Below, piece by piece: positions 19,120-51,608 of a stretch of 64,000 bases of DNA. The position numbers and the translations under genes are program-made. Numbering within the stretch: the first letter of the stretch is position 1; each line of letters opens with the position of its first letter. The notes beneath the pieces are model-generated. The model was given only the letters and a program-made list of their open reading frames with translations, was not told the DNA's origin and searched no databases. Source of the stretch: Patescibacteria group bacterium (GTDB taxonomy: Bacteria; Patescibacteriota; Minisyncoccia; Phycocordibacterales; UBA9973). The DNA lies in assembly GCA_028865035.1 (NCBI GenBank), contig JAGWLB010000003.1, positions 2,247-66,246 of the forward strand, read 5' to 3'.

Positions 19120-20343
19120 TTATTTACTTATTTTAATTAATCTATTGTACTTAGCATTTCTTTCTTTTGGTCCTATTGCGCCAGCTTTTATACCATAACA
19201 CCCAAAAGCAAACGCTAGGTCACTAATAAAATCATCCATAGTCTCACCGCTTCTGTGGCTAATTATGCATTCTATATTATTATTACGTGCTAATAACATA
19301 GTATTTAGTGTTTCCGTTAATGTGCCTATCTGGTTTGGTTTGATTATTATTCCTTCTATACTTTGCATTTCAATAGCTTTTTTAAGTCTATTTATGTTTG
19401 TTACAGTTAGATCGTCGCCTATTATTTTTGTTTTTGGTAACTCATTTTGTAATAAATTAAAACTTTTATAATCTTCCTCATAGAATGGATCCTCAATAGA
19501 AATTAATGGGTATTTTTTACTAATATTTTTGTAAAGTTCAATCATTTGATTTACATCCCAATCTTTGTCCATAAATCTGTATATATTTTTACTTTGATCA
19601 TAAAAAGAATTTGCAGCTACATCAAGAGCAAACATAACTTTATTTGTATAATTTAATGAATCAACCGCTTCTTTTAGCAAAGAAAGTGGTTCCTCTATAT
19701 TTTCTGTGTTAATAGCTATCCCTCCCTCATCTCCTTTTATTGGAAGACTGCCGTATCTCTTTACAATAATTTCATCCAATTTGTTTTGTATTTCTTTACA
19801 CATTTCAATGTTTAAAACGATATCTTTTTCTTGAGGTACAATATGATATTCTTGAAATGCAAGTTTTGTTTTAGTGTGCTTACCTCCATTTATAAGATTA
19901 AAATACAAAAAAGTATTTGTATGTAATATTTTCATACTAGATAGCCTGCGAAGATATTCATATACTTCAATATTATTCACTTTAGCAGCAGCTTTTGCAC
20001 AAGCAATACTAACTCCAATCATACTGTTACCACCTAGAATTGTTTTCTGTGAAGTTCCATCTAGGTTAATCATTATTTCATCAATTTTTTTTTGATCTTC
20101 AACATCTATACCCACGAGTGATGGTTTGATGATTTCATTTATTTGTTTTATAGCTTTTTCTACTGTACCCTTACCTGTGTTATCATCACGTAACTCATAT
20201 GCTTCATATTTACCAGTACTTGCCCCAGAAGGTACAAGAAAGGTACCTACTGAATCTTCAACATATACCGATACTTTTAGAGTAGGATTATTCCTAGAAT
20301 CATAAATTTGTTCAGCTATTATATCTGTAATTATTTTATTCAT
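19120..20343 (-). CDS. eno: Enolase
   Basis: IYDSRNNPTLKVSVYVEDSVGTFLVPSGASTGKYEA.ELRD plus the conserved metal and substrate-binding residues. 407 aa. Confidence 0.9.
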   Translation of the reverse strand: MNKIITDIIAEQIYDSRNNPTLKVSVYVEDSVGTFLVPSGASTGKYEAYELRDDNTGKGTVEKAIKQINEIIKPSLVGIDVEDQKKIDEIMINLDGTSQKTILGGNSMIGVSIACAKAAAKVNNIEVYEYLRRLSSMKILHTNTFLYFNLINGGKHTKTKLAFQEYHIVPQEKDIVLNIEMCKEIQNKLDEIIVKRYGSLPIKGDEGGIAINTENIEEPLSLLKEAVDSLNYTNKVMFALDVAANSFYDQSKNIYRFMDKDWDVNQMIELYKNISKKYPLISIEDPFYEEDYKSFNLLQNELPKTKIIGDDLTVTNINRLKKAIEMQSIEGIIIKPNQIGTLTETLNTMLLARNNNIECIISHRSGETMDDFISDLAFAFGCYGIKAGAIGPKERNAKYNRLIKISK

Positions 20344-20344
20344 A

Positions 20345-21613
20345 TTATTTTTGAAGTAATATCATAAGATCAGATACATTACTCCCAGTCTCGCCTGTGA
20401 TAATCTGATCCCCGGTTTTAGAAAAAAAGTCGTCTATAGTATTTTTCTCAAGAGTTTCTTTAATAGAAAGATTTTTTTTATTTGCTTTTTCAATTGTAAA
20501 TTTATCTGCAATTGCGCCAGCAGAAATTGAAAGATTATCTATACCATCTGATGCAAATGATGATAAAATATTTTCTGGACCTATCATATCGAGAGAAAGC
20601 ATTGTTAAGTATTCACAACGACCATTTATACCTCTCTCACCTTTTACTATAACTGATGGTTCACCAGCTCCAATAACAACTGTATGTGGTTTAGCGTTTG
20701 TTAGTAATTTATTGATGATAATTTTTGGTTCTTCGTATAATTTAGCGCCAATATTTACTACATTATAACCAAGTTCCTCTGCTTTCTTTTTCATACCTGT
20801 TAAAGCATAACTATTGGTAACGAGTGGAATGTTAAATACTTTTTCAAAATATATATCCTCTTTAGGGGTTTCATTTAAAATAAAATTATATTTTAAATTA
20901 TATTTTAATAGTATAGATTGGGCGTCTTGTACTAGTGATGTGTCTTTATATGTTGGGCCAGAGGCAACTTCTTCATATTTATCACCAGGAACATCGCAAA
21001 ATATAAGAGATGCAACAGTTGCAGGATATAAAAGTTTAGCCAACCCACCACCCTTTAATAAAGATAAATGCTTACGTAATGTATTTAATTCTGTAATATC
21101 CCCTCCTGATTTTAAAAATTCATCATAAAGAATTATCCCTTGTTCGCATTCTAATTTTGGCCAACATAGCATAGATGAACCCCCACCAGATACTACAACA
21201 ATTGCTAAGTCTTTTTCATCTAATTTTTCTGCAAGTTGAGCTAACTCTTCAGATGGAAGAATATTCTCTACTGAAGGTTTTGGATGAGTGCAGATATATT
21301 GTTTTACATATTTGCATTCTCCAAGCTTTTTTTCCATTACAATACCACCCGCAATTTTATCGCCTAGAATCCCTTCAATCGCATTTACAGCAACAGATGA
21401 AGTCTTACCAAAACCTATTATATAAATATGATCATAATCATTTAGATTAAATGTATTATTTTCAATTGTTAGTAGATTGTTATTAAGTTTAAATTTCTTA
21501 TCTATAATGGCTGCTGTGTCTATAGCTTCATAAGCTGATTCCATTATAGTTAGCATATCAGTACGTTCTTTTGTTATAGCCAATTCATCAAAATTTTTGA
21601 TATATCTTTTCAT
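20345..21613 (-). CDS. Glycerate 2-kinase (MOFRL family)
   Basis: IIGFGKTSSVAVNAIE, VVSGGGSSMLCWP and LLKGGGLAKL are MOFRL-type motifs. 422 aa. Lies directly upstream of eno in the same orientation. Confidence 0.7.
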   Translation of the reverse strand: MKRYIKNFDELAITKERTDMLTIMESAYEAIDTAAIIDKKFKLNNNLLTIENNTFNLNDYDHIYIIGFGKTSSVAVNAIEGILGDKIAGGIVMEKKLGECKYVKQYICTHPKPSVENILPSEELAQLAEKLDEKDLAIVVVSGGGSSMLCWPKLECEQGIILYDEFLKSGGDITELNTLRKHLSLLKGGGLAKLLYPATVASLIFCDVPGDKYEEVASGPTYKDTSLVQDAQSILLKYNLKYNFILNETPKEDIYFEKVFNIPLVTNSYALTGMKKKAEELGYNVVNIGAKLYEEPKIIINKLLTNAKPHTVVIGAGEPSVIVKGERGINGRCEYLTMLSLDMIGPENILSSFASDGIDNLSISAGAIADKFTIEKANKKNLSIKETLEKNTIDDFFSKTGDQIITGETGSNVSDLMILLQK

Positions 21614-21659
21614 TTATGGTTATATTATATACCTTTAATCTTGATTTTTCAATAAATAA

Positions 21660-23339
21660 TTATTTATTTATAAATAATTTTGCTAATCGAATATCTTCAA
21701 AAGAAAGTTTGTATCCCTGTTTTTCAAGGATTAATTTAATTGGAGATAACTTACCAATCTCATCATTTTTCAAGGTACGGTTCGCTTTATTTACAATAAT
21801 AATATCTTGTTGTTTAGGTTTAATATGATTAATCTTTGTTTTTGGAAATTTATCTACAATTTGTTCAATATGATAAACTATAGTACTTTTAGTTAAACCC
21901 CTTTCTTTCGCTATCTTGTTAATACTCATACCTTGATTCAATAAATTCATTGTAGTAATTATTGTTGGAATTTTATCTGATGTCTTTGTTTTATTATTAT
22001 TTTTATTAATTACTCCGCCCATACGTACGATAAAAGAATGTTCTAATTTTTCTTGTTCACTTTTACTTAATTTACCAAAGTAGACAAGTTCATTCTGTGT
22101 ACTTTCATTACGAAGTTCTTTGTCGAATTGAAGTACCTTAGGATCTACTCGTAAGGCATCTGGATTAAATCCTACTAATTTTATTCCAGTCATAGTTTTT
22201 ACTCTTGAAAGTGCTACATAACCCATACCATACGCAAATGTATGAGTAAGGTCTATCTCTGCGTTATCAAGTGACATACCCTGACTTTTGTGTATTGTAA
22301 TAGCCCAAGCTAGACGTATAGGAAGCTGACTAATAGAAGCTTTATTTTTACCATTTTCTTCTATTGCCCAAGTTTCTTTGTGGGCGTATATTGTCTTACC
22401 ATTATAGAGCTCTATAATAGGAGTATTATCGGACGGCAGAAAATCTATAACTTTACCTCTAGTACCGTTAACATATCCTTCTTCAAAATTATTTTTTATA
22501 CACATTATTTCAGCTCCAACTTTAAGATGTAATTTCTCACTAGCAAGACAACTTTTTCTTAATATTTCAACTAATGGCTCGGGCCCAGTTGATGACATAT
22601 AAAATACCTTCTCATCAGTTTTTAAATTCGAAAGTTCAGTATTGTTTTCTATATCAACATTCGTATTATGGGTATATAATTTTGTTGGAATAATGTTATT
22701 CGGCAGCTCTGCATTTAATCGATTTTTTAATTGTTCATAATGCAACTCTTCCACTGTGTCACTGCGTATTGCATTTAAAATCGATGTCAGTTCTTCGTCT
22801 ACTTGTCTATGTTGTTCTGTAAGATAACAAATGGCCGGATTCATTATACGCCAAGCTTCACTATATAAGACCATATCTTTCAAATTTGTTTCATTTGAAC
22901 GATTTATAGGAGGTAATTGAAAAAAATCCCCAGAGATAATTATTTGCAAACCCCCAAAAGGTTTATCGCTTCTCTTGAACCTGCGACATACTCGTTCTAT
23001 TATATCTAGTCTATGTGCGTGAAGCATCGATACTTCATCGATAATAAGCACCCTAGCTTTCTCAAAACGTTTCCATAAATATTGTTTACCTTCTAATACC
23101 TCTAGATCATACTCATCTATTTTATCTTTTATACCAATTCCAGCCCAACCATGTATCGTCATGCCATTCATATGAGTAGCAGCTATGCCTGTTGAAGCTG
23201 TAATAGCCACAGGTATATCGTGGTTTTTGAGATATGATATGTATTCATTTAGAAGATAAGTTTTACCACTTCCAGCACTACCAGTAAGGTATACATTTAC
23301 TCCTGTTTTCATAATAGCAAGTGCTTGTTTTTGAGTCAT
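21660..23339 (-). CDS. Pif1-family (RecD-like SF1B) DNA helicase with a C-terminal helix-turn-helix domain
   Basis: Motif I LTGSAGSGKTYLL, motif II IIDEVSMLHA, motif III ISGDFFQLPPI, and a late SQGMSLD. The C-terminal ~100 aa contain SINKIAKERGLTKSTIVYHI, an HTH. 559 aa, 22 bp downstream of lexA. Confidence 0.75.
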   Translation of the reverse strand: MTQKQALAIMKTGVNVYLTGSAGSGKTYLLNEYISYLKNHDIPVAITASTGIAATHMNGMTIHGWAGIGIKDKIDEYDLEVLEGKQYLWKRFEKARVLIIDEVSMLHAHRLDIIERVCRRFKRSDKPFGGLQIIISGDFFQLPPINRSNETNLKDMVLYSEAWRIMNPAICYLTEQHRQVDEELTSILNAIRSDTVEELHYEQLKNRLNAELPNNIIPTKLYTHNTNVDIENNTELSNLKTDEKVFYMSSTGPEPLVEILRKSCLASEKLHLKVGAEIMCIKNNFEEGYVNGTRGKVIDFLPSDNTPIIELYNGKTIYAHKETWAIEENGKNKASISQLPIRLAWAITIHKSQGMSLDNAEIDLTHTFAYGMGYVALSRVKTMTGIKLVGFNPDALRVDPKVLQFDKELRNESTQNELVYFGKLSKSEQEKLEHSFIVRMGGVINKNNNKTKTSDKIPTIITTMNLLNQGMSINKIAKERGLTKSTIVYHIEQIVDKFPKTKINHIKPKQQDIIIVNKANRTLKNDEIGKLSPIKLILEKQGYKLSFEDIRLAKLFINK

Positions 23340-23361: not shown

Positions 23362-23928
23362 TTAGTATTTTCTAATGACGGCCTTTACAACCGCAGTAAT
23401 AGTTAAATAATTTGTTGGATATATTGGTTTAAAATCTTTGTTGGCTGGTTCAAGCCAAACTTTATCTCCAGATTTTTTAAAATATTTCATTGTAAATTCA
23501 CCGTCGACATTTGCTATAACTATCTGTCCGTCTTTTGCTTTATCTGTCTTCTCAACAAGAACCATATCACCATCAGCTATATGAGCATCGATCATTGAAT
23601 CTCCATCAACTTCAAGCATAAAAGTGTTATCTTTTTTGGTTACAAGATAATCATCAAGATTTACTGTATCGTTTAACTCCTCTGTGACATCTGAGGGAAA
23701 TCCTGCTTTTACTAAACCAAGTAATGGAATACTGTCAAAAGATTCATTTGGGATAATTCTTCCTAGATAATCTTTGGTAACCAAACCATTGTCTATAAAT
23801 TTATCAACAAGACGTGCCACAGCATTTTTGGATTTAAATCCGAAAATTTTCATCATTTCCGTGTAAGTCGGCATACGCTTATGTAGTTGGTGGAATGAAG
23901 TTAATTTATTTTTGTATTCGTTATACAT
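23362..23928 (-). CDS. lexA: LexA repressor (S24 peptidase)
   Basis: N-terminal winged HTH (PTYTEMMKIFGFKSKNAVARLVDKF). C-terminal S24 fold with the GDSMIDAHIADGDMVLV Ser nucleophile region and a downstream Lys. 188 aa. Confidence 0.8.
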   Translation of the reverse strand: MYNEYKNKLTSFHQLHKRMPTYTEMMKIFGFKSKNAVARLVDKFIDNGLVTKDYLGRIIPNESFDSIPLLGLVKAGFPSDVTEELNDTVNLDDYLVTKKDNTFMLEVDGDSMIDAHIADGDMVLVEKTDKAKDGQIVIANVDGEFTMKYFKKSGDKVWLEPANKDFKPIYPTNYLTITAVVKAVIRKY

Positions 23929-24129: not shown

Positions 24130-24171
24130 ATATATAATATTGATTATTTGCTTATAATCGACTGCATATAT

Positions 24172-24200
24172 AGTATATGTGAACGCTCGTTCACAGTCAA
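24172..24200 (-). promoter_or_regulatory. SOS promoter with a Cheo-type LexA box GAAC-N4-GTTC embedded in its spacer, read on the minus strand as TTGACT-17-TATACT
   Basis: On the minus strand: TTGACT (24195-24200), 17-nt spacer GTGAACGAGCGTTCACA, and TATACT (24172-24177). On the plus strand the spacer reads TGTGAACGCTCGTTCAC (24178-24194), containing the perfect palindrome GAACGCTCGTTC (24181-24192). Confidence 0.65.
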
Positions 24201-24322
24201 TACTTTAACTGTGGATAACTACAAAATAAATATTTATAAATAATAAAATTAATAATTTTTAATAATTTAAATCCTTTACGAAAAATTTACATTGGGTATT
24301 CTATTATAGTACAATAAAAGCA

Positions 24323-25027
24323 ATGAGAAAATTTTTACTTTCAGTTTTTGTTATATCTGTATTTGGTATATATGCACTATTTGCTAAGTCGGGGAATCCC
24401 TCGACTGTTGTTTTTAATACACAAACTAATTCAAATACGAATAATCAACTAAATAATAATGATTCAAATACTTTACCTATAACGACTCCCCCTTCAACTG
24501 CGCCTACAGTAACCGAGGCCCCAGTTGTAAAAAAAGTCAAGAAAACAACTTGTTCCTGGAAATATTATGGAGGTGATGATGAAGAAAACAGCAGATACGT
24601 ATGTACAACAACATTAGTAGATACTACTCCCACCTCATCAAAAACAACTACAACTACACCTAAACCAACATCAACTCCAACCACTCCTAAAACTGTAGCT
24701 GTTGCTACGCCTCCTCCTGTAGTAAAACCTAAATCAACAAGTGGCTGGAATGATGGTACTTTTACTGGTAATAGTATTGATGCTTACTATGGGTATGTAC
24801 AAGTATCAGCAACTATTTCTGGTGGTCGTCTTACAAATATAAATTTCTTGGATTACCCTCAAGATCGTAGCACATCACTGATGAAAAGCCAGATGGCTAT
24901 GACGATATTAAAATCAGAAGCAATTAATGCTCAAAGTTCTAATGTTGATTATGTATCAGGTGCAACTTATACTAGCGATGCTTTTAATCAATCATTATCA
25001 TCTGCTTTAAGTAAAGCTAGAGTTTAA
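24323..25027 (+). CDS. Exported FMN-binding-domain protein (NqrC/RnfG-like) with a Thr/Pro-rich linker
   Basis: Signal/TM N-terminus and a T/P/S-rich low-complexity linker. The C-terminal domain (GYVQVSATISGGRLTNINFLDYPQDRSTSLMKSQ...VDYVSGATYTSDAF) is an FMN_bind domain with an SGATYT flavinylation motif. Confidence 0.7.
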   Translation: MRKFLLSVFVISVFGIYALFAKSGNPSTVVFNTQTNSNTNNQLNNNDSNTLPITTPPSTAPTVTEAPVVKKVKKTTCSWKYYGGDDEENSRYVCTTTLVDTTPTSSKTTTTTPKPTSTPTTPKTVAVATPPPVVKPKSTSGWNDGTFTGNSIDAYYGYVQVSATISGGRLTNINFLDYPQDRSTSLMKSQMAMTILKSEAINAQSSNVDYVSGATYTSDAFNQSLSSALSKARV

Positions 25028-25031
25028 AGTT

Positions 25032-25778
25032 ATGAAAGACACAAGATTAATAATGGGTATGCCCATAACAGTTGAGATAGTTGATTTACATGTTGAAAAC
25101 CAAGTTCTAGAATCTGTATTTAACTATTTTACTTATATTGATGAAAAGTTTAGTACGTATAAAGAGACAAGTGAAATTATGAAGATAAATCGTGGTGAAA
25201 TAAATGAAAATGATTATAGTGAAGATATGAAAGAAATTTTTCAATTAGCTGAAAAAACAAAAATAGAAACTAATAATTTTTTTAATATAAAAAAGCCAGA
25301 TGGATCTTACGACCCTTCTGGTATTGTTAAAGGTTGGGCTATTCAAAAAGCAAGTGATAATCTGAAAAATAATGGTTATAATAATTTTTGTTTAGATGCC
25401 GGTGGTGATATACAAACTAGTGGTAAGAACAGTAAAGGTGAACCATGGACAATTGGTATTCGTAACCCATTAAATACAAATGAAATTATAAAAATAATAA
25501 ATAATAAAAACAACAAAGGAATTGCGACTTCAGGTACATATATAAGAGGAAATCATATATATAATCCGAATAATAAAGATGATATACTTTCAGAAGTTTT
25601 AAGCTTAACTGTTATTGGTCCAAATATTTACGAGGCTGATCGTTTTGCTACTGCAGCATTTGCTATGGGTAAAGATGGTATATATTTCATAGACAAGCTA
25701 GTCGGATTTGAAGGTTATATGATTGATACTAAAGGTATCGCAACTATGACTAGAGGTTTTGAGGAATACACGCAATGA
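25032..25778 (+). CDS. apbE: ApbE-family FAD:protein FMN transferase
   Basis: MGMPITVEI, DPSGIVKGWAIQKA, LDAGGDIQTSG, ATSGTYIRG and ADRFATAAF are ApbE signatures. 248 aa. Confidence 0.8.
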   Translation: MKDTRLIMGMPITVEIVDLHVENQVLESVFNYFTYIDEKFSTYKETSEIMKINRGEINENDYSEDMKEIFQLAEKTKIETNNFFNIKKPDGSYDPSGIVKGWAIQKASDNLKNNGYNNFCLDAGGDIQTSGKNSKGEPWTIGIRNPLNTNEIIKIINNKNNKGIATSGTYIRGNHIYNPNNKDDILSEVLSLTVIGPNIYEADRFATAAFAMGKDGIYFIDKLVGFEGYMIDTKGIATMTRGFEEYTQ

Positions 25779-25789
25779 ATTAAATATAT

Positions 25790-27322
25790 ATGTTAAATAT
25801 AATAGACAATTTTCTAAACAAAATAACAATGTATCGTCTGGTACTGTACTTTTTGATTTTCTTATTATTACTTGCCACTGGATTTAGCGCTATGGGAATG
25901 CTTCCCTTTAGTCCATTAATGCTCCTATTTGGAACTGCACTTTTGCTAATTATCGGCTGGGCTGTAAATTTTATTTTCTCAGAAGTATTTAATGCGCCTA
26001 CAAACGTAGAATCATTTTATATAACAGCATTGATTCTTGCTCTTATTATTACACCACCACAATCTTTTTCAGATGTTTCTTACTTGATGTTTATATTCTG
26101 GGCAGCACTTTGGGCAATGGCTTCAAAATACATACTAGCAATAGGTAAAAAGCATATATTCAATCCAGCGGCTTTCGCGGTGGCACTAACAGCTTTGACT
26201 CTTGGTCAATCAGCAAGTTGGTGGGTAGGTACGGGTTCAATGTTACCATTTGTATTTGTTGGTGGATTTCTTATTACTCGTAAAATTAGACGTACAGATC
26301 TAGTTCTTTCTTTTATATTTATTTCACTCCTTGTAAGTATTTTTATGCATGCTCATAGTTTTGGAGATATATTTAAATTTGGTAGTCGTGCTATAAAAGA
26401 CTCTCCACTATTTTTCTTTGCTTTTGTAATGCTTACTGAACCACTTACAACTCCACCTACGAAATATCTGAGAATTGGTTATGGAGCATTAGTTGGAGCA
26501 ATTTTTGACCCAATGGTTCATTTAGGTTCAATGTATTCAACACCAGAGCTTGCTTTAATTGTAGGAAATGTATTTTCTTATTTAGTTAGTCCTAAATTAA
26601 AATTAATGTTGCGTTTTAAATCAAAAACACAAATTGCTAAAGATACATATGATTTTTCTTTTGCATCGAGTAAAGATGAAATACCATTTAGGCCTGGCCA
26701 ATATTTCGAATGGACATTACCTCACGAACATCCTGATAGTCGTGGTAATAGAAGGTACTTCACCATAGCCTCTTCTCCCATATCTGAAGAAGTACATATT
26801 GGTGTTAAATTTTACCCTAAATCTAGTAGTTTCAAAAATGCTCTTTTAAAAATGGAAAGAGGTGATAAAATTGTTGCTTCACAACTTGCTGGTGATTTTA
26901 TAATGCCTAGAAATAAACGTATAAAACTTTGCTTTATAGCCGGAGGCATAGGAGTAACTCCTTTTGAAAGTATGATTAATTATATGCTAAAGCGAGGACA
27001 AAAAAGAAATGTTGTAATGTTTTACTCAAATAGAACAGTAGATGATATCGCTTATATGGAAACATTCGAAAAAGCTAGAACAGAACTAGGTATAAAAACG
27101 ATCTATGCTTTATCAGAATTAGATTCAATACCTTCAGATTGGAAAGGTGCACGAGGGTTCATTACTGCGGAAATGATCGCAAAAGAAGTTCCTGATTTTG
27201 AAGATCGCATTTTTTATATATCAGGACCACATTCTATGGTTAGCGCATTTAATGAATCATTGTCTAGAATGGGAGTAAACCAATCTCAGATTATAACTGA
27301 TTTCTTTCCTGGTTTTGCTTAA
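25790..27322 (+). CDS. Membrane oxidoreductase: N-terminal polytopic NqrB/RnfD-like domain fused to a C-terminal FNR-type FAD/NAD(P)-binding module (NqrF-like, no ferredoxin domain)
   Basis: The N-terminal ~270 aa have about 8 TM helices, with HIFNPAAFAVAL and MLTEPLTTPPT resembling the RnfD/NqrB motifs (QNPFNPAM / ILTDPVTASTT). The C-terminus has RPGQYFEW, the RRYFTIASSP FAD-binding R-x-Y-S/T motif, and the FIAGGIGVTPFESM NAD(P)-binding motif. Confidence 0.65.
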   Translation: MLNIIDNFLNKITMYRLVLYFLIFLLLLATGFSAMGMLPFSPLMLLFGTALLLIIGWAVNFIFSEVFNAPTNVESFYITALILALIITPPQSFSDVSYLMFIFWAALWAMASKYILAIGKKHIFNPAAFAVALTALTLGQSASWWVGTGSMLPFVFVGGFLITRKIRRTDLVLSFIFISLLVSIFMHAHSFGDIFKFGSRAIKDSPLFFFAFVMLTEPLTTPPTKYLRIGYGALVGAIFDPMVHLGSMYSTPELALIVGNVFSYLVSPKLKLMLRFKSKTQIAKDTYDFSFASSKDEIPFRPGQYFEWTLPHEHPDSRGNRRYFTIASSPISEEVHIGVKFYPKSSSFKNALLKMERGDKIVASQLAGDFIMPRNKRIKLCFIAGGIGVTPFESMINYMLKRGQKRNVVMFYSNRTVDDIAYMETFEKARTELGIKTIYALSELDSIPSDWKGARGFITAEMIAKEVPDFEDRIFYISGPHSMVSAFNESLSRMGVNQSQIITDFFPGFA

Positions 27323-27327
27323 AATAT

Positions 27328-28281
27328 TTAAGCAGTAAGTCTCTTTTTTACTTTTTTATTAAATTTATACCACTTCCATTTTATAACACACCAAGTATTA
27401 CAGTATGCTTCGCCATATGGAGGGTGCTTTATTGAATCTGTTTTGAGGCAATTTTCACAACAAATAAAATGGTCATGACACATAAGGTTGGCACAGTTCA
27501 CATAGTGCTCACTCGGAGTGCCACACTTTGTGCAGTGGCCAATTATCTCATGTTTATTGGGATCATCGAAATTCATAACAATACGTTTATCGAAAACATA
27601 AAGAGAACCCTTAAAATTCTCTCCTGGGTATTTTTCCATATAACTGACTATTCCTCCATCGAGCTGATAGACATCTTTAAATCCTTCCCTCTTTAATAAG
27701 CCAGAAGCTTTCTCGCAACGTACTCCACCAGTACAGACTGTGACTACGGTCTTGTCTTTCAAGTCTTCTATTTTTTTAATATTTTTTTTGAGGTCACGAA
27801 AATTATTTAAATCTGGAAAAGCTGTTCCTTCAAATTTACCAACACGAAGTTCGTAATCATTGCGCATATCTACAACATGAAATTCTTTGCCTTCCTCATA
27901 CCATTTCTTTAGCATTTCTGGTTTTAAATGCGTACCAGTAATTTGATTTGGGTCTATATCTTCTTCTTCGCCTAAATGCAGAGATACTATTTCTTTTCGA
28001 ACTTTTACAGAAAGACGTGGAAAAGCGGTACCGTCTGATGTACCTTCACTTATTTTCCAATGAGTATCTGCAAACCTAGAATCAGCTTTCATTATATCCA
28101 TATACTCACGGCAAGCTTCATCTGTACCCTCATATGTGCCATTTATACCCTCTTTTGCTATGATCATACGGCCTTTCATACCAAGGTGCTTGCATAGGTC
28201 AAATTGAGCATCCCTGAGCCCTTTGGGGTCATCTATATGGACATATTTATAGAAAAGGATAATAGTGTGTTTGTTTACCAT
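27328..28281 (-). CDS. trhO: Rhodanese-domain tRNA uridine(34) hydroxylase (TrhO/YceA, UPF0176) with a Cys-rich C-terminal extension
   Basis: IILFYKY..I.DP, the rhodanese CTGGVRCEKASGLL active-site loop, and a C-terminal CTKCG...CANLMCHDHFICCENC segment. Confidence 0.7.
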   Translation of the reverse strand: MVNKHTIILFYKYVHIDDPKGLRDAQFDLCKHLGMKGRMIIAKEGINGTYEGTDEACREYMDIMKADSRFADTHWKISEGTSDGTAFPRLSVKVRKEIVSLHLGEEEDIDPNQITGTHLKPEMLKKWYEEGKEFHVVDMRNDYELRVGKFEGTAFPDLNNFRDLKKNIKKIEDLKDKTVVTVCTGGVRCEKASGLLKREGFKDVYQLDGGIVSYMEKYPGENFKGSLYVFDKRIVMNFDDPNKHEIIGHCTKCGTPSEHYVNCANLMCHDHFICCENCLKTDSIKHPPYGEAYCNTWCVIKWKWYKFNKKVKKRLTA

Positions 28282-28299
28282 ATTCTTTTAATATAACAA

Positions 28300-28743
28300 T
28301 TATTTCCTATATTTACGAGTGCGCCATTTGTCGGCTATCTTTACACGGGTTAGTGAACGTTCAAGTTCTGATTCAAAATGTTCAAAATCAACAATCTCTT
28401 TATTTTCAGCTTGCTTGCTGAGTTCTTCTGCCTTCTGCTTCGCCTTAGCTATCATTTCGTCTGTAATATCTGCAACGTGTTCCGCAAAGTCAGCAAGTAT
28501 AGCGCAAGTGGTCACATCACCATCTTTTTTTACTTCAATAAATCCACCGACGACAGCCATCGGTATGTGTTCACCAGAAGAGATAGCAACAACATCACCA
28601 GATGATAGTTCTGCTATAAGTGGGACATGGTCAGCCAAAACTGATATTTCCCCATTAGCCGTTGGGATAGTCACAGCGTCCACCATCTCATCTAAAATGA
28701 GTTTCTCGGGAGTTATTATTTTTAATTGTAATTGTTTTGACAT
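28300..28743 (-). CDS. atpC: F-ATP synthase epsilon subunit
   Basis: LKIITPEKLILDEMVDAVTIPTANGEISVLADHVPLIAELSSGDV. Last gene of the atp operon. Confidence 0.85.
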   Translation of the reverse strand: MSKQLQLKIITPEKLILDEMVDAVTIPTANGEISVLADHVPLIAELSSGDVVAISSGEHIPMAVVGGFIEVKKDGDVTTCAILADFAEHVADITDEMIAKAKQKAEELSKQAENKEIVDFEHFESELERSLTRVKIADKWRTRKYRK

Positions 28744-28758
28744 TACTATTTTAAAAAA

Positions 28759-30132
<1,374 letters not shown>

Positions 30133-30157
30133 TTAATTGATAATGTTTTAATATTTT

Positions 30158-31093
30158 CTAACTTACGCTTGCCATACCGGCACTTATTTCTGATATCTCT
30201 TGGGTGATGCCTGCTTGGCGGGCTTTGTTGAAGACTAATGTCAAATCTCCAATCATCTCCCCTGCGGCTTCACTAGCATTCTTCATCGCGACCATTCTAG
30301 AAGATTGTTCAGAAGCACTCGACTCAAGAACCATCTGGTAAATCTGCATTCTTGTCAGCTTTTCGGCGAGTGACCCTACGAGGGTGCTTATATCTCCGTC
30401 AAACACATAAGGTATATCTTTCGTAGAATCTTTATCTGGTAGAATTTCATTTTTATTATCTTTTTCTTCACCGATGCTTTCAATTAAATCTTTTAACTCT
30501 TGTTTTGATATTGGTAAAAGTTTTCTAACATTCGCACTTTGCGTTAGGGCTGATATAAAATCCGTATAAGCTACATAGACATGGTTGTATTTACCAGCTT
30601 TGTATTCATCTACTATTAGTTTTGAAAGAGGAACAATATCTTGCAAGGAAATATTATTGTCTGGAATCTCTGTAAACGACGCGATAATATTCTGTCCGAT
30701 TCTACGCATAGCCCCATCTCCTTTTTTGCCGACAGTAACAATATCTATCTCAGTGTCTGCCTTAGTATTGGATAGGTTTTTTATCATTGCTAGAGCTTTC
30801 TTGGTCACCTGGCTATTATAAGCTCCACAAAGACCACCATTTGAAGTTATTAACACGAGTAGAGTCTTATTATGATTAGTATGTTCTGTAAAGAATGGAT
30901 GATAAATATCATCAAGGCGACTAGAAAGCGAGGTCAAAAGTTCCCAAGAATATCCAGCATATAGACGAGACGAAAGAGCTCGAGACACGGCCTTCTTCAT
31001 CTTCGAAGCTGCCACGAGCTCCATCGCTTTCGTGATCTTCTTCGTGTTCTTCACACTCTTTATTCGTTGTTTTATTTCTTTTGTACCTGCCAT
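30158..31093 (-). CDS. atpG: F-ATP synthase gamma subunit
   Basis: MAGTKEIKQRIKSVKNTKKITKAMELVAASKMKKA N-terminus and a conserved C-terminal helix. Confidence 0.9.
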   Translation of the reverse strand: MAGTKEIKQRIKSVKNTKKITKAMELVAASKMKKAVSRALSSRLYAGYSWELLTSLSSRLDDIYHPFFTEHTNHNKTLLVLITSNGGLCGAYNSQVTKKALAMIKNLSNTKADTEIDIVTVGKKGDGAMRRIGQNIIASFTEIPDNNISLQDIVPLSKLIVDEYKAGKYNHVYVAYTDFISALTQSANVRKLLPISKQELKDLIESIGEEKDNKNEILPDKDSTKDIPYVFDGDISTLVGSLAEKLTRMQIYQMVLESSASEQSSRMVAMKNASEAAGEMIGDLTLVFNKARQAGITQEISEISAGMASVS

Positions 31094-31102
31094 AAAAAAT
31101 AT

Positions 31103-32605
31103 TTATTTCACAAACCCAGTTTTAAAATCCTCTATTGCTTTTTTAAGAGAAGCTTCACTTTCATCTGTCCACATTTTCTTTTCAATCACATCTTTGTAGA
31201 AATCTTTAGCATTGAGTTGCGTATATTCAAGAAGTCCATCTTCAAATTCTTTAATTTTTTCAACTGGGACGTCATCAAGATAACCTTTGATAAGTGCATA
31301 GAGAATAACTGTCTGGCGTTCTGTAATGACAGGAGAATATTGAGGTTGCTTTAGAACTTCTACGGCTCTTCTTCCACGATCAAGCTGGCGTTTGGTATTT
31401 TCATCCAAGTCTGAACCAAATTGTGAAAAAGCTTCAAGTTCACGGAACTGAGCAAGGTCAAGCTTGAGTGTACCAGAGACTTTTTTCATAGCTTTAATCT
31501 GTGCAGCTGAACCGACACGAGAAACTGAAAGTCCGACGTTTACCGCAGGGCGAATTCCTTTATAGAATAAATCTGTCTCAAGGAATATTTGTCCGTCTGT
31601 GATAGAAATAACGTTAGTAGGAATATAAGCCGAGACGTCTCCAGCTTGGGTTTCAATAATTGGTAATGCTGTAATAGAGCCACCACCGTATTCTTTATTT
31701 TTTCGGCAAGCACGCTCAAGAAGACGTGAGTGCAAGTAGAAGACATCTCCAGGGTACGCTTCACGACCTGGTGGACGTCGAAGCAATAGTGATATCTCAC
31801 GATAAGCTACAGCATGCTTTGACAAATCATCATAGATAATTAGTACGTCTTTACCTTGATCCATAAAGAATTCAGCAATAGAGACTCCAGTATAAGGAGC
31901 GATATATGCAAGCGCTGCCGGTTCTGAGGCTCCAGCTGAAACAATAATTGTATAATCCATAGCGCCTCCTTCCTCTAAACGAGTTTGAAGTTTACGAAGT
32001 TTAGAATCTTTTTGACCGATTGAAACATAAACACAAATCATATCTTGGCCTTTTTGGTTGAGTATTGTGTCTATAGCGATGGCTGTCTTACCTGTCTGAC
32101 GGTCACCAATGATGAGCTCGCGCTGTCCACGACCAATAGGAATCAGTGCATCGATAGCTTTGATACCAGTCGCGACTGGCTGGTCGACACCTTGACGACT
32201 CATAACCCCAGAAGCCACTTTTTCAATAGGAGCTCTCTTATCTGTCTTTATCTGACCTTTTCCATCAATAGGTTCACCCAGAGCATTCAAGACACGACCT
32301 ATTTGAGCGTCTGATACTGGAACAGAAAGAATATTGCCTGTGGCTTTGACTTCGTCTCCTTCTTTAATAGTATGAAAATCTCCCAGAACAATTACTCCGA
32401 CAGAATCTTCATCGAGGTTCAAGGCTACTCCCATTGCTCCCGTAGAGAAGCTGACCATTTCTGATGCTTTTAAATCTGATAGACCAGAGACTCGAGCAAT
32501 ACCATCAAAAACTTCAACAACGTGGCCAACCTTCTCGGCTTTTATGTCGTCTTGGAATTTTTCAATTTGTTTTCTTAAATTTTCTACAATGTGATTTTTG
32601 GCCAT
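31103..32605 (-). CDS. atpA: F-ATP synthase alpha subunit
   Basis: [15 protein letters not shown] Walker A and conserved alpha-subunit motifs. 500 aa. Confidence 0.95.
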
Positions 32606-35118: not shown

Positions 35119-35190
35119 GCGTGTGTAGTTCAGTGGTAGAACGCTGTCCTGATAAGACAGAGGTCGAAGGTTCGATTCCTTCCACACGCA
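35119..35190 (+). tRNA. tRNA-Ile (anticodon GAT)
   Basis: Manually folded cloverleaf: acceptor GCGTGTG/CACACGC, D-arm GTTC-AGTGGTA-GAAC, anticodon arm CTGTC-CTGATAA-GACAG, variable AGGTC, T-arm GAAGG-TTCGATT-CCTTC, discriminator A. 72 nt, CCA not encoded. Confidence 0.7.
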
Positions 35191-51523: not shown

Positions 51524-51608
51524 TGGTGCCCGAGGTGGGAATCGAACCCACATCCCTTACGAGACACGATTTTAAGTCGTGCGCGTATACCAGTTCCGCC
51601 ACTCGGGC
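51524..51608 (-). tRNA. tRNA-Leu (anticodon TAA), class II with long variable arm, CCA encoded
   Basis: Reverse complement GCCCGAGTGGCGGAACTGGTATACGCGCACGACTTAAAATCGTGTCTCGTAAGGGATGTGGGTTCGATTCCCACCTCGGGCACCA: acceptor GCCCGAG/CTCGGGC, anticodon stem CACGA/TCGTG with loop CTTAAAA, long variable arm, T-arm GTGGG-TTCGATT-CCCAC. Confidence 0.75.

Follow-up and report, generated by a model that had tools for sequence, protein, structure and literature searches.

A 64,000-nucleotide stretch of a Patescibacteria metagenome-assembled genome (contig JAGWLB010000003.1; hereafter the window) carries three adjacent plus-strand genes for an FMN_bind-domain protein, an ApbE-family flavin transferase, and a membrane protein in which an NqrB/RnfD-like domain is fused to an NqrF-like module of the FNR family. 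This gene trio very probably constitutes a two-subunit NQR/RNF-like transmembrane electron-transfer system that is equipped with its own flavin transferase. An earlier note, prepared from the sequence alone, had proposed that electrons pass from NAD(P)H in the cytoplasm to a flavoprotein beyond it, and had stated that the arrangement was not recognizable as a described system. The proposed electron flow coincides with a published model. The statement on novelty is wrong, since the trio typifies a system that the literature already describes and shows no essential difference from it.

Specifically, Méheust et al. (eLife, 2021; PMC8238504) define exactly this architecture. Their "NQR/RNF-like systems", found mainly in Actinobacteria and in the Candidate Phyla Radiation (CPR), carry an N-terminal PF03116 NqrB/RnfD-like domain and a C-terminal PF00175 domain on one protein encoded in a cluster with ApbE or FMN_bind genes, and are proposed to transfer electrons one way, from NAD(P)H to the outside. 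Huang et al. [quoted passage not shown] The window encodes a PF03116-type NqrB/RnfD-like domain at the N-terminus of the fusion protein, a PF00175 domain that is predicted to be cytosolic at the C-terminus of the same polypeptide, and both FMN_bind and ApbE in the two adjacent upstream genes. Likewise, the membrane-anchored NqrC/RnfG-like partner carries a [S/T]GA[S/T] motif at which flavinylation is predicted, and the NqrB/RnfD threonine is not conserved. Three details go beyond the descriptions in the sections of these papers that were consulted, namely a leaderless ApbE, a loop deletion of ~75 amino acids, and a long tether with a two-cysteine insertion.

The open reading frames (ORFs) for the FMN_bind protein (positions 24323-25027; 234 amino acids; MDE2030978.1), ApbE (25032-25778; 248 amino acids; MDE2030979.1), and the fusion protein (25790-27322; 510 amino acids; MDE2030980.1) are co-directional on the plus strand and begin and end exactly where the earlier note had placed them. 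NCBI already lists the proteins under MDE2030978-80, which derive from a Patescibacteria metagenome-assembled genome and include an identical FMN_bind protein. Because the gaps between the genes are tight (4 nucleotides between FMN_bind and ApbE, 11 nucleotides between ApbE and the fusion), the three genes are predicted to form one operon. Among the profile searches that the earlier note had recommended, PF04205, PF02424, and PF00175 yield matches, PF03116 is borderline, and PF00970 is weak.

Architecture of the fusion protein

The N-terminal domain of the fusion protein (residues 1-266; 25790..26587, plus strand) is assigned as an NqrB/RnfD-like polytopic membrane domain by its fold and its profile matches. 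This domain was modeled and profiled separately, since Foldseek and PDB profile searches with the full-length protein are dominated by the FNR half. On its own, the domain matches PF03116 (NQR2_RnfD_RnfE) with 28.3 bits, and 20/20 homologues match the same family, the best at 2.2e-14. A search of its profile against the PDB recovers the Azotobacter vinelandii RnfD (8ahx_D; 5.6e-5) as the single solved match, and hhalign aligns fusion residues 157-262 with residues 230-334 of E. coli RsxD at a probability of 94.5. The AlphaFold2 model of residues 1-272 (predicted local distance difference test, or pLDDT, 84; predicted template-modeling score, or pTM, 0.83) was compared with the PDB by Foldseek, and the top 15 matches are all NqrB/RnfD proteins (E 2.6e-5 to 7e-4; template-modeling scores of 0.55-0.67). 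The next matches are urea transporters (E>0.5), which are known structural relatives of NqrB/RnfD (PMC12174285). The FNPA and LTEPLTTP motifs occupy residues 124-127 and 215-222. Profile and fold thus support the NqrB/RnfD-like assignment made in the earlier note, rather than the ferric reductase or unrelated permease that it had named as possible alternatives.

The membrane domain differs from RnfD in one extended region. The spacing from FNPA to the GG helix is 34 residues in the fusion versus 109 in E. coli RsxD, whose T187 (S-Q-A-T) lies between these two elements. Thus, ~75 residues that include the flavinylated threonine are missing from the fusion protein. In their place is a short loop formed by residues 139-151 (GQSASWWVGTGSM; 26204..26242, plus strand), and this SASWW-containing loop is predicted to lie on the outside of the membrane. 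The deletion is read from the local hhalign alignment and from the motif spacing, as a global MAFFT alignment with RsxD misplaced the large gap. Among 82 fusion proteins, none (0/82) carries a [ST]GA[ST] motif in the membrane domain. Only two histidines of the domain, H122 and H244, are invariant. Several possible ion-pathway features are kept, including the invariant E217 within LTEPLT, the preceding phenylalanine-rich FFFAF, and an N72/E74/S75 motif.

The C-terminal half forms the NqrF-like FNR module (26600..27322, plus strand), with residues ~271-367 binding flavin adenine dinucleotide (FAD) and residues ~379-510 binding NAD(P) by prediction. NAD_binding_1 (PF00175) matches residues 382-487 at 5.7e-17, and the FAD_binding_6 (PF00970) match is weak at 1.2e-3. 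NCBIfam relates this half to the FNR family, including NqrF, and the best matches among solved sequences are the FAD/NAD domains of NqrF (1.8e-17). Foldseek likewise recovers an FNR fold, with FNR-family structures at 1e-17 to 1e-14. Of the two FNR motifs listed in the earlier note, GGIGVTP is present as residues 385-391; the other, RxYS, does not occur as written, and its position is taken by R322-Y-F-T325, an R-x-[YF]-[ST] variant. Pfam finds no Fer2 match on the fusion, which contains a single cysteine (C381), and hence the protein has no 2Fe-2S domain, as the earlier note had also concluded.

The topology of the system was predicted from the distribution of positive charge. When helices are taken from the model and loops are compared across 30 homologues, the loops of the fusion protein carry a mean of 12.4 lysines and arginines inside versus 1.0 outside, which predicts a cytoplasmic location for the FNR module as well as for the two termini. 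The anchor of the FMN_bind protein has flanking charges among 59 partner proteins that are typically +2 on the N-terminal side and ~0 on the C-terminal side, from which an N-in/C-out orientation is predicted. The FNR domain is therefore predicted in the cytoplasm and the FMN_bind domain outside, as the earlier note had expected of a topology prediction.

The presumed flavin carrier, its transferase, and conservation of the trio

The FMN_bind protein matches PF04205 over residues 155-229 (3.7e-9) and is weakly related to NqrC/RnfG by NCBIfam. The closest solved relative of its FMN_bind domain is 8P2A (SaFMN3-D2; 4.3e-19), a crystal structure in which FMN is covalently bound to a threonine (PMC10339131). 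The SGATYT sequence at residues 212-217, which the earlier note had read as a flavinylation site, is confirmed within the motif D209-Y-V-S-G-A-T215 (Dxx[ST]GA[ST]; 24947..24967, plus strand). This motif aligns with DAVSGAT of 8P2A, such that T215 corresponds to the threonine carrying covalent FMN and is not missing in alignments, a deficiency that the earlier note had said would count against its proposal. The motif is present in 44/59 partner proteins of related loci. From this alignment, FMN is predicted to be attached at T215, and the FMN_bind protein is presumed to be a flavinylated electron carrier.

The carrier has a single hydrophobic segment, an N-terminal membrane anchor that spans residues 3-21 after M-R-K and is thus preceded by Arg-Lys (24329..24385, plus strand; KD19 = 2.14). 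Its pattern, MKKxLLS..I..F..Y, is kept across phyla in FMN_bind partners, which would fit specific packing of the anchor against the membrane domain. The anchor is followed by a low-complexity tether rich in threonine, proline, and asparagine by composition (residues 22-148; 24386..24766, plus strand), and the 124 residues counted (25-148) include 32 threonines, 15 prolines, and 12 asparagines. The linkers measured in homologues range from 18 to 184 amino acids, and the tether here is unusually long. It contains an extra insertion of ~45 amino acids (residues ~67-111; window positions 24521-24655) that is absent from four relatives. Within this insertion, the segment TTC77SWKYYGGDDEENSRYVC94TT holds the only two cysteines of the protein, C77 and C94, which may form a disulfide-closed loop.

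Pfam matches the second protein of the trio to PF02424 at 6.3e-38, confirming the earlier assignment as an ApbE flavin transferase, and its profile matches solved ApbE chains at 1.5e-25. The sequences A165-T-S-G168 and E201-A-D203..T207 are invariant in five orthologues, and their TSG and EAD..T elements are conserved catalytic motifs of the ApbE family. The protein is compact and has neither the signal peptide nor the lipobox of an extracytoplasmic ApbE. Its KD19 peaks at 0.84, and no upstream extension of the ORF is possible. Similarly, related loci in five phyla supply 65 ApbE ORFs, of which 64 have no N-terminal hydrophobic segment. The sole exception (locus L059; KD15 1.46) has its hydrophobic segment within an upstream extension of the longest-ORF call, and this segment probably reflects an over-extended start.

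The conservation of the trio was surveyed with one genome per species. At least 425 fusion relatives are confirmed among 600 matching stretches examined, and very many full-length relatives have 55-74% identity, mostly from Patescibacteria. The membrane domain alone recovers 1,490 clusters at 50% identity (347 of them at E<=1e-30) in 1.84 billion representatives. The best 80 loci were taken for comparison and come from many classes of Patescibacteria as well as Chloroflexota (Ktedonobacteria), Alphaproteobacteria (Mesorhizobium, Kaistia), Spirochaetota, and Actinomycetota; 77 have enough upstream sequence to assess gene order. With narrow hidden Markov models, the order FMN_bind-ApbE-fusion is found in 54/77 loci, from Patescibacteria, Chloroflexota, Alphaproteobacteria, and Spirochaetota. 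A further 9/77 loci have ApbE, several of them preceded by a divergent FMN_bind-like family. A co-occurrence survey of this kind had been suggested in the earlier note; no fewer than 54 of the 77 loci share the order seen in the window. Four relatives examined individually keep the order of the trio amid unrelated flanking genes.

Several other genes recur beside the trio in these loci. An OmpR-type response regulator and a sensor histidine kinase, which are absent from the window, are encoded near the fusion in 14-16 of ~80 loci (among them L011:6920-8596, L034, L036, L038-L043, L049, L068, L072, and L073). These loci belong to CPR, Alphaproteobacteria, and Spirochaetota. In L011, the sole locus for which coordinates were checked, the pair is located downstream of the fusion. 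Such two-component neighbors hint at regulated expression of the trio. Genes for VIT1/CCC1-like iron transporters adjoin the trio in L038 (1504-2253), L040, L041, and L043, which are loci of Mesorhizobium, Phyllobacterium, and Chloroflexia. These neighbors match the link to iron assimilation noted by Méheust et al. (2021; PMC8238504). Other recurrent neighbors are MacB-type ABC transporters and P-type ATPases (4 loci).

Proposed mechanism and competing explanations

The trio shares modules with three other flavin-dependent systems, and is distinct from each. [quoted passage not shown] However, Na+-NQR has six subunits, and the trio lacks NqrA, NqrD, NqrE, the N-terminal 2Fe-2S domain of NqrF, and the covalent FMN site in the NqrB-like part. 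Moreover, the NqrB and NqrF parts are fused in the trio, and quinone reduction is not expected because its electron path would be one-way rather than semicircular as in Na+-NQR. With RNF (RnfABCDGE, or E. coli RsxABCDGE), the trio has in common an RnfD-like fold, the FNPA and LT[DE]P[LV]T motifs, and an RnfG-like anchored FMN protein. In contrast to RNF, it has neither the RnfA/RnfE pair nor the Fe-S subunits RnfB and RnfC, the loop that carries the FMN-bearing Thr187 of RnfD is deleted, and the electron donor would be NAD(P)H via the FNR module rather than ferredoxin. Finally, in flavin-based extracellular electron transfer of Listeria (Ndh2, EetA/B, PplA, and FmnB), a surface FMN_bind protein is also the target of an ApbE-family transferase and is believed to pass electrons to extracellular acceptors. 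The membrane step of the Listeria pathway is formed by Ndh2 and the quinone pool, whereas no quinone would be involved in the trio. Furthermore, PplA and FmnB are lipoproteins, whereas the trio has a helix-anchored carrier and a leaderless ApbE.

We hypothesize that the two-subunit NQR/RNF-like system operates as follows. In the FNR-type domain on the cytoplasmic side, NAD(P)H would give up its electrons to FAD, and these would cross the membrane through the NqrB/RnfD-like domain along the NqrB path in reverse. In NqrB/RnfD, riboflavin lies close to the cytoplasm, whereas FMN is close to the periplasmic (outer) side (PMC12174285). In the trio, a non-covalent flavin bound where NqrB/RnfD hold their riboflavin presumably mediates the membrane step. 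Because the fusion protein has one cysteine and two invariant membrane histidines, only flavins would carry the electrons. ApbE would attach FMN to Thr215 of the membrane-anchored NqrC-like protein, and this FMN would receive the electrons and is proposed to fill the outer-face pocket that is used in NqrB/RnfD by the covalent FMN, whose loop is deleted here. The tethered FMN domain would then hand the electrons to an acceptor outside the cytoplasm, for example Fe(III), O2, or an oxidant that is soluble or host-derived.

Several observations weigh against this mechanism. The PF03116 score of the full-length fusion, at 26.8 bits, is slightly under the Pfam gathering cutoff of 27.7, and no acceptor gene is consistently linked to the trio in the surveyed loci. 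Neither Méheust et al. (2021) nor Huang et al. (2024) report an experiment on an NQR/RNF-like system, and literature searches gave no characterization. Also, the ApbE of the cluster is leaderless, yet the mechanism needs a flavinylated domain outside the cytoplasm, which leaves the attachment of FMN unexplained. Characterized ApbE proteins with exported substrates are secreted lipoproteins, and known leaderless ones modify cytoplasmic enzymes (PMC12052999). Flavinylation outside the cytoplasm otherwise requires the export of FAD, according to the abstract of PMC9973259. In the pipeline of Méheust et al. (2021; PMC8238504), one signal peptide, carried by either FMN_bind or ApbE, was sufficient and necessary, and the sections consulted of this paper and of Huang et al. 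(2024; PMC10979944) contain no mention of the issue.

These findings on ApbE, which hold for the window and for 64 of 65 ORFs in five phyla, count in favor of an explanation in which the FMN_bind protein is flavinylated in the cytoplasm by a cytoplasmic ApbE, and then either stays at the inner face or is exported with its FMN. In the inner-face version, the membrane domain would serve as an ion path or a scaffold rather than as an electron conduit. We consider this explanation unlikely. The anchor of the FMN_bind protein fits a positive-inside, N-in/C-out arrangement in nearly all homologues, and Thr/Pro-rich tethers like the one found here are typical of cell-envelope proteins; both features speak against an inward-facing carrier. 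So does the published AlphaFold-multimer model, in which the NqrB-like domain has the FMN site in its outer-face pocket (PMC10979944). The version with export is compatible with one-way electron transfer to the outside and therefore is not a true rival to it. Flavinylation of the carrier before or during export is possible and would make FAD export unnecessary. The alternative to such pre-export flavinylation, in which the FMN domain of the carrier works on the inner face, has a low probability.

Two further explanations reinterpret the fusion protein itself. The homology of the trio to NqrB/RnfD, NqrC/RnfG, and NqrF might indicate a remnant or accessory of a full NQR or RNF complex, which would need NqrD/E, RnfA/E, and other subunits encoded elsewhere. 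This is very unlikely, since the trio is self-contained with differing flanks in five phyla, the NqrB-type FMN loop is deleted, and the FNR module has no 2Fe-2S domain of the kind that NqrF uses to feed NqrD/E. In addition, phmmer searches with single E. coli RsxA-G sequences match none of the ORFs in the window, a negative result of limited sensitivity given that the relationship of RsxD to the fusion is also missed. The other explanation, an enzyme of the NOX/ferric-reductase type with a six-helix bis-heme membrane domain and an FNR module, would accommodate the alignment of the full-length model to SpNOX (8qt6; E 7e-16) and a weak PF08030 match. However, both matches stem from the FNR half (the structural alignment has a root-mean-square deviation of 18 Å over 449 columns), and the membrane domain alone matches only NqrB/RnfD. 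This type of enzyme is rejected because it would have four conserved histidines for its two hemes, whereas H122 and H244 are the only invariant ones in a domain with the NqrB/RnfD fold; we give it hardly any credence.

A combined possibility is that the carrier is flavinylated inside, to be exported with its FMN or retained at the inner face, and that the fusion protein is a flavin-only, two-subunit cation pump driven by NAD(P)H. The pump is suggested because the NqrB/RnfD-like domain keeps the ion pathway proposed for its family (E217, FFFAF, and N72/E74/S75). This combination is rather doubtful, but if true, the pump could energize the membrane of organisms that have no respiratory chain.

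Patescibacteria (CPR) are regarded as fermenters without respiratory chains that often live attached to hosts. An all-flavin wire that is driven by NAD(P)H and leads to the cell surface would be one of their few membrane redox devices. Possible roles include redox balancing or extracellular electron transfer, both of which the earlier note had suggested, as well as iron reduction and uptake, O2 scavenging, and electron exchange with the host. The locus adds no new kind of system. Rather, it offers a clean and compact example with which to test the published model of NQR/RNF-like electron transfer, and it lends itself to asking how an ApbE without a leader acts on a substrate that is exported.

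Genomic neighborhood

The best promoter-like site for the operon, TTTACA-18-TACAAT (24286..24315, plus strand), is a consensus match only and ends 8 nucleotides before the first ATG. Its position suggests that the operon has a very short 5′ leader or none. Compared with shuffled sequence, the region has no excess of promoter-like sites, and a terminator scan found no convincing terminator downstream of the operon.

Downstream, the fusion gene meets a convergent minus-strand gene for a TrhO-like rhodanese (UPF0176) at a gap of 5 nucleotides, followed on the same minus strand by genes for the epsilon, beta, gamma, and alpha subunits of the F1 ATP synthase (all within 27328-32605). Adjacency of the ATP synthase to the trio recurs only in the window and in L001/L002, L006, and L069, all of which are close relatives. 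A functional link between the two was considered and is rejected as lineage synteny. The window encodes only two tRNAs, Ile-GAT at 35119 and Leu-TAA at 51524, and no other Rfam family is found in its 64 kb. Upstream, minus-strand genes at 19120-23339 encode enolase, a DUF4147/MOFRL glycerate-kinase-like protein, and a Pif1-family helicase with a C-terminal HTH_40, a set that is typical of small CPR genomes.

Between these genes and the trio, a minus-strand gene for a LexA-like S24 peptidase (23362-23928) and its 64-amino-acid leader ORF are divergent from the flavin operon. The intergenic region (24130-24322) contains the only GAAC-N4-GTTC sequence, the LexA/Cheo-box core, in the 64 kb (GAACGCTCGTTC; 24181-24192). 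This site is 131 base pairs upstream of the FMN_bind ATG. It also overlaps a promoter-like site on the minus strand, located upstream of the peptidase gene and its leader ORF, and it probably marks autoregulation of lexA.

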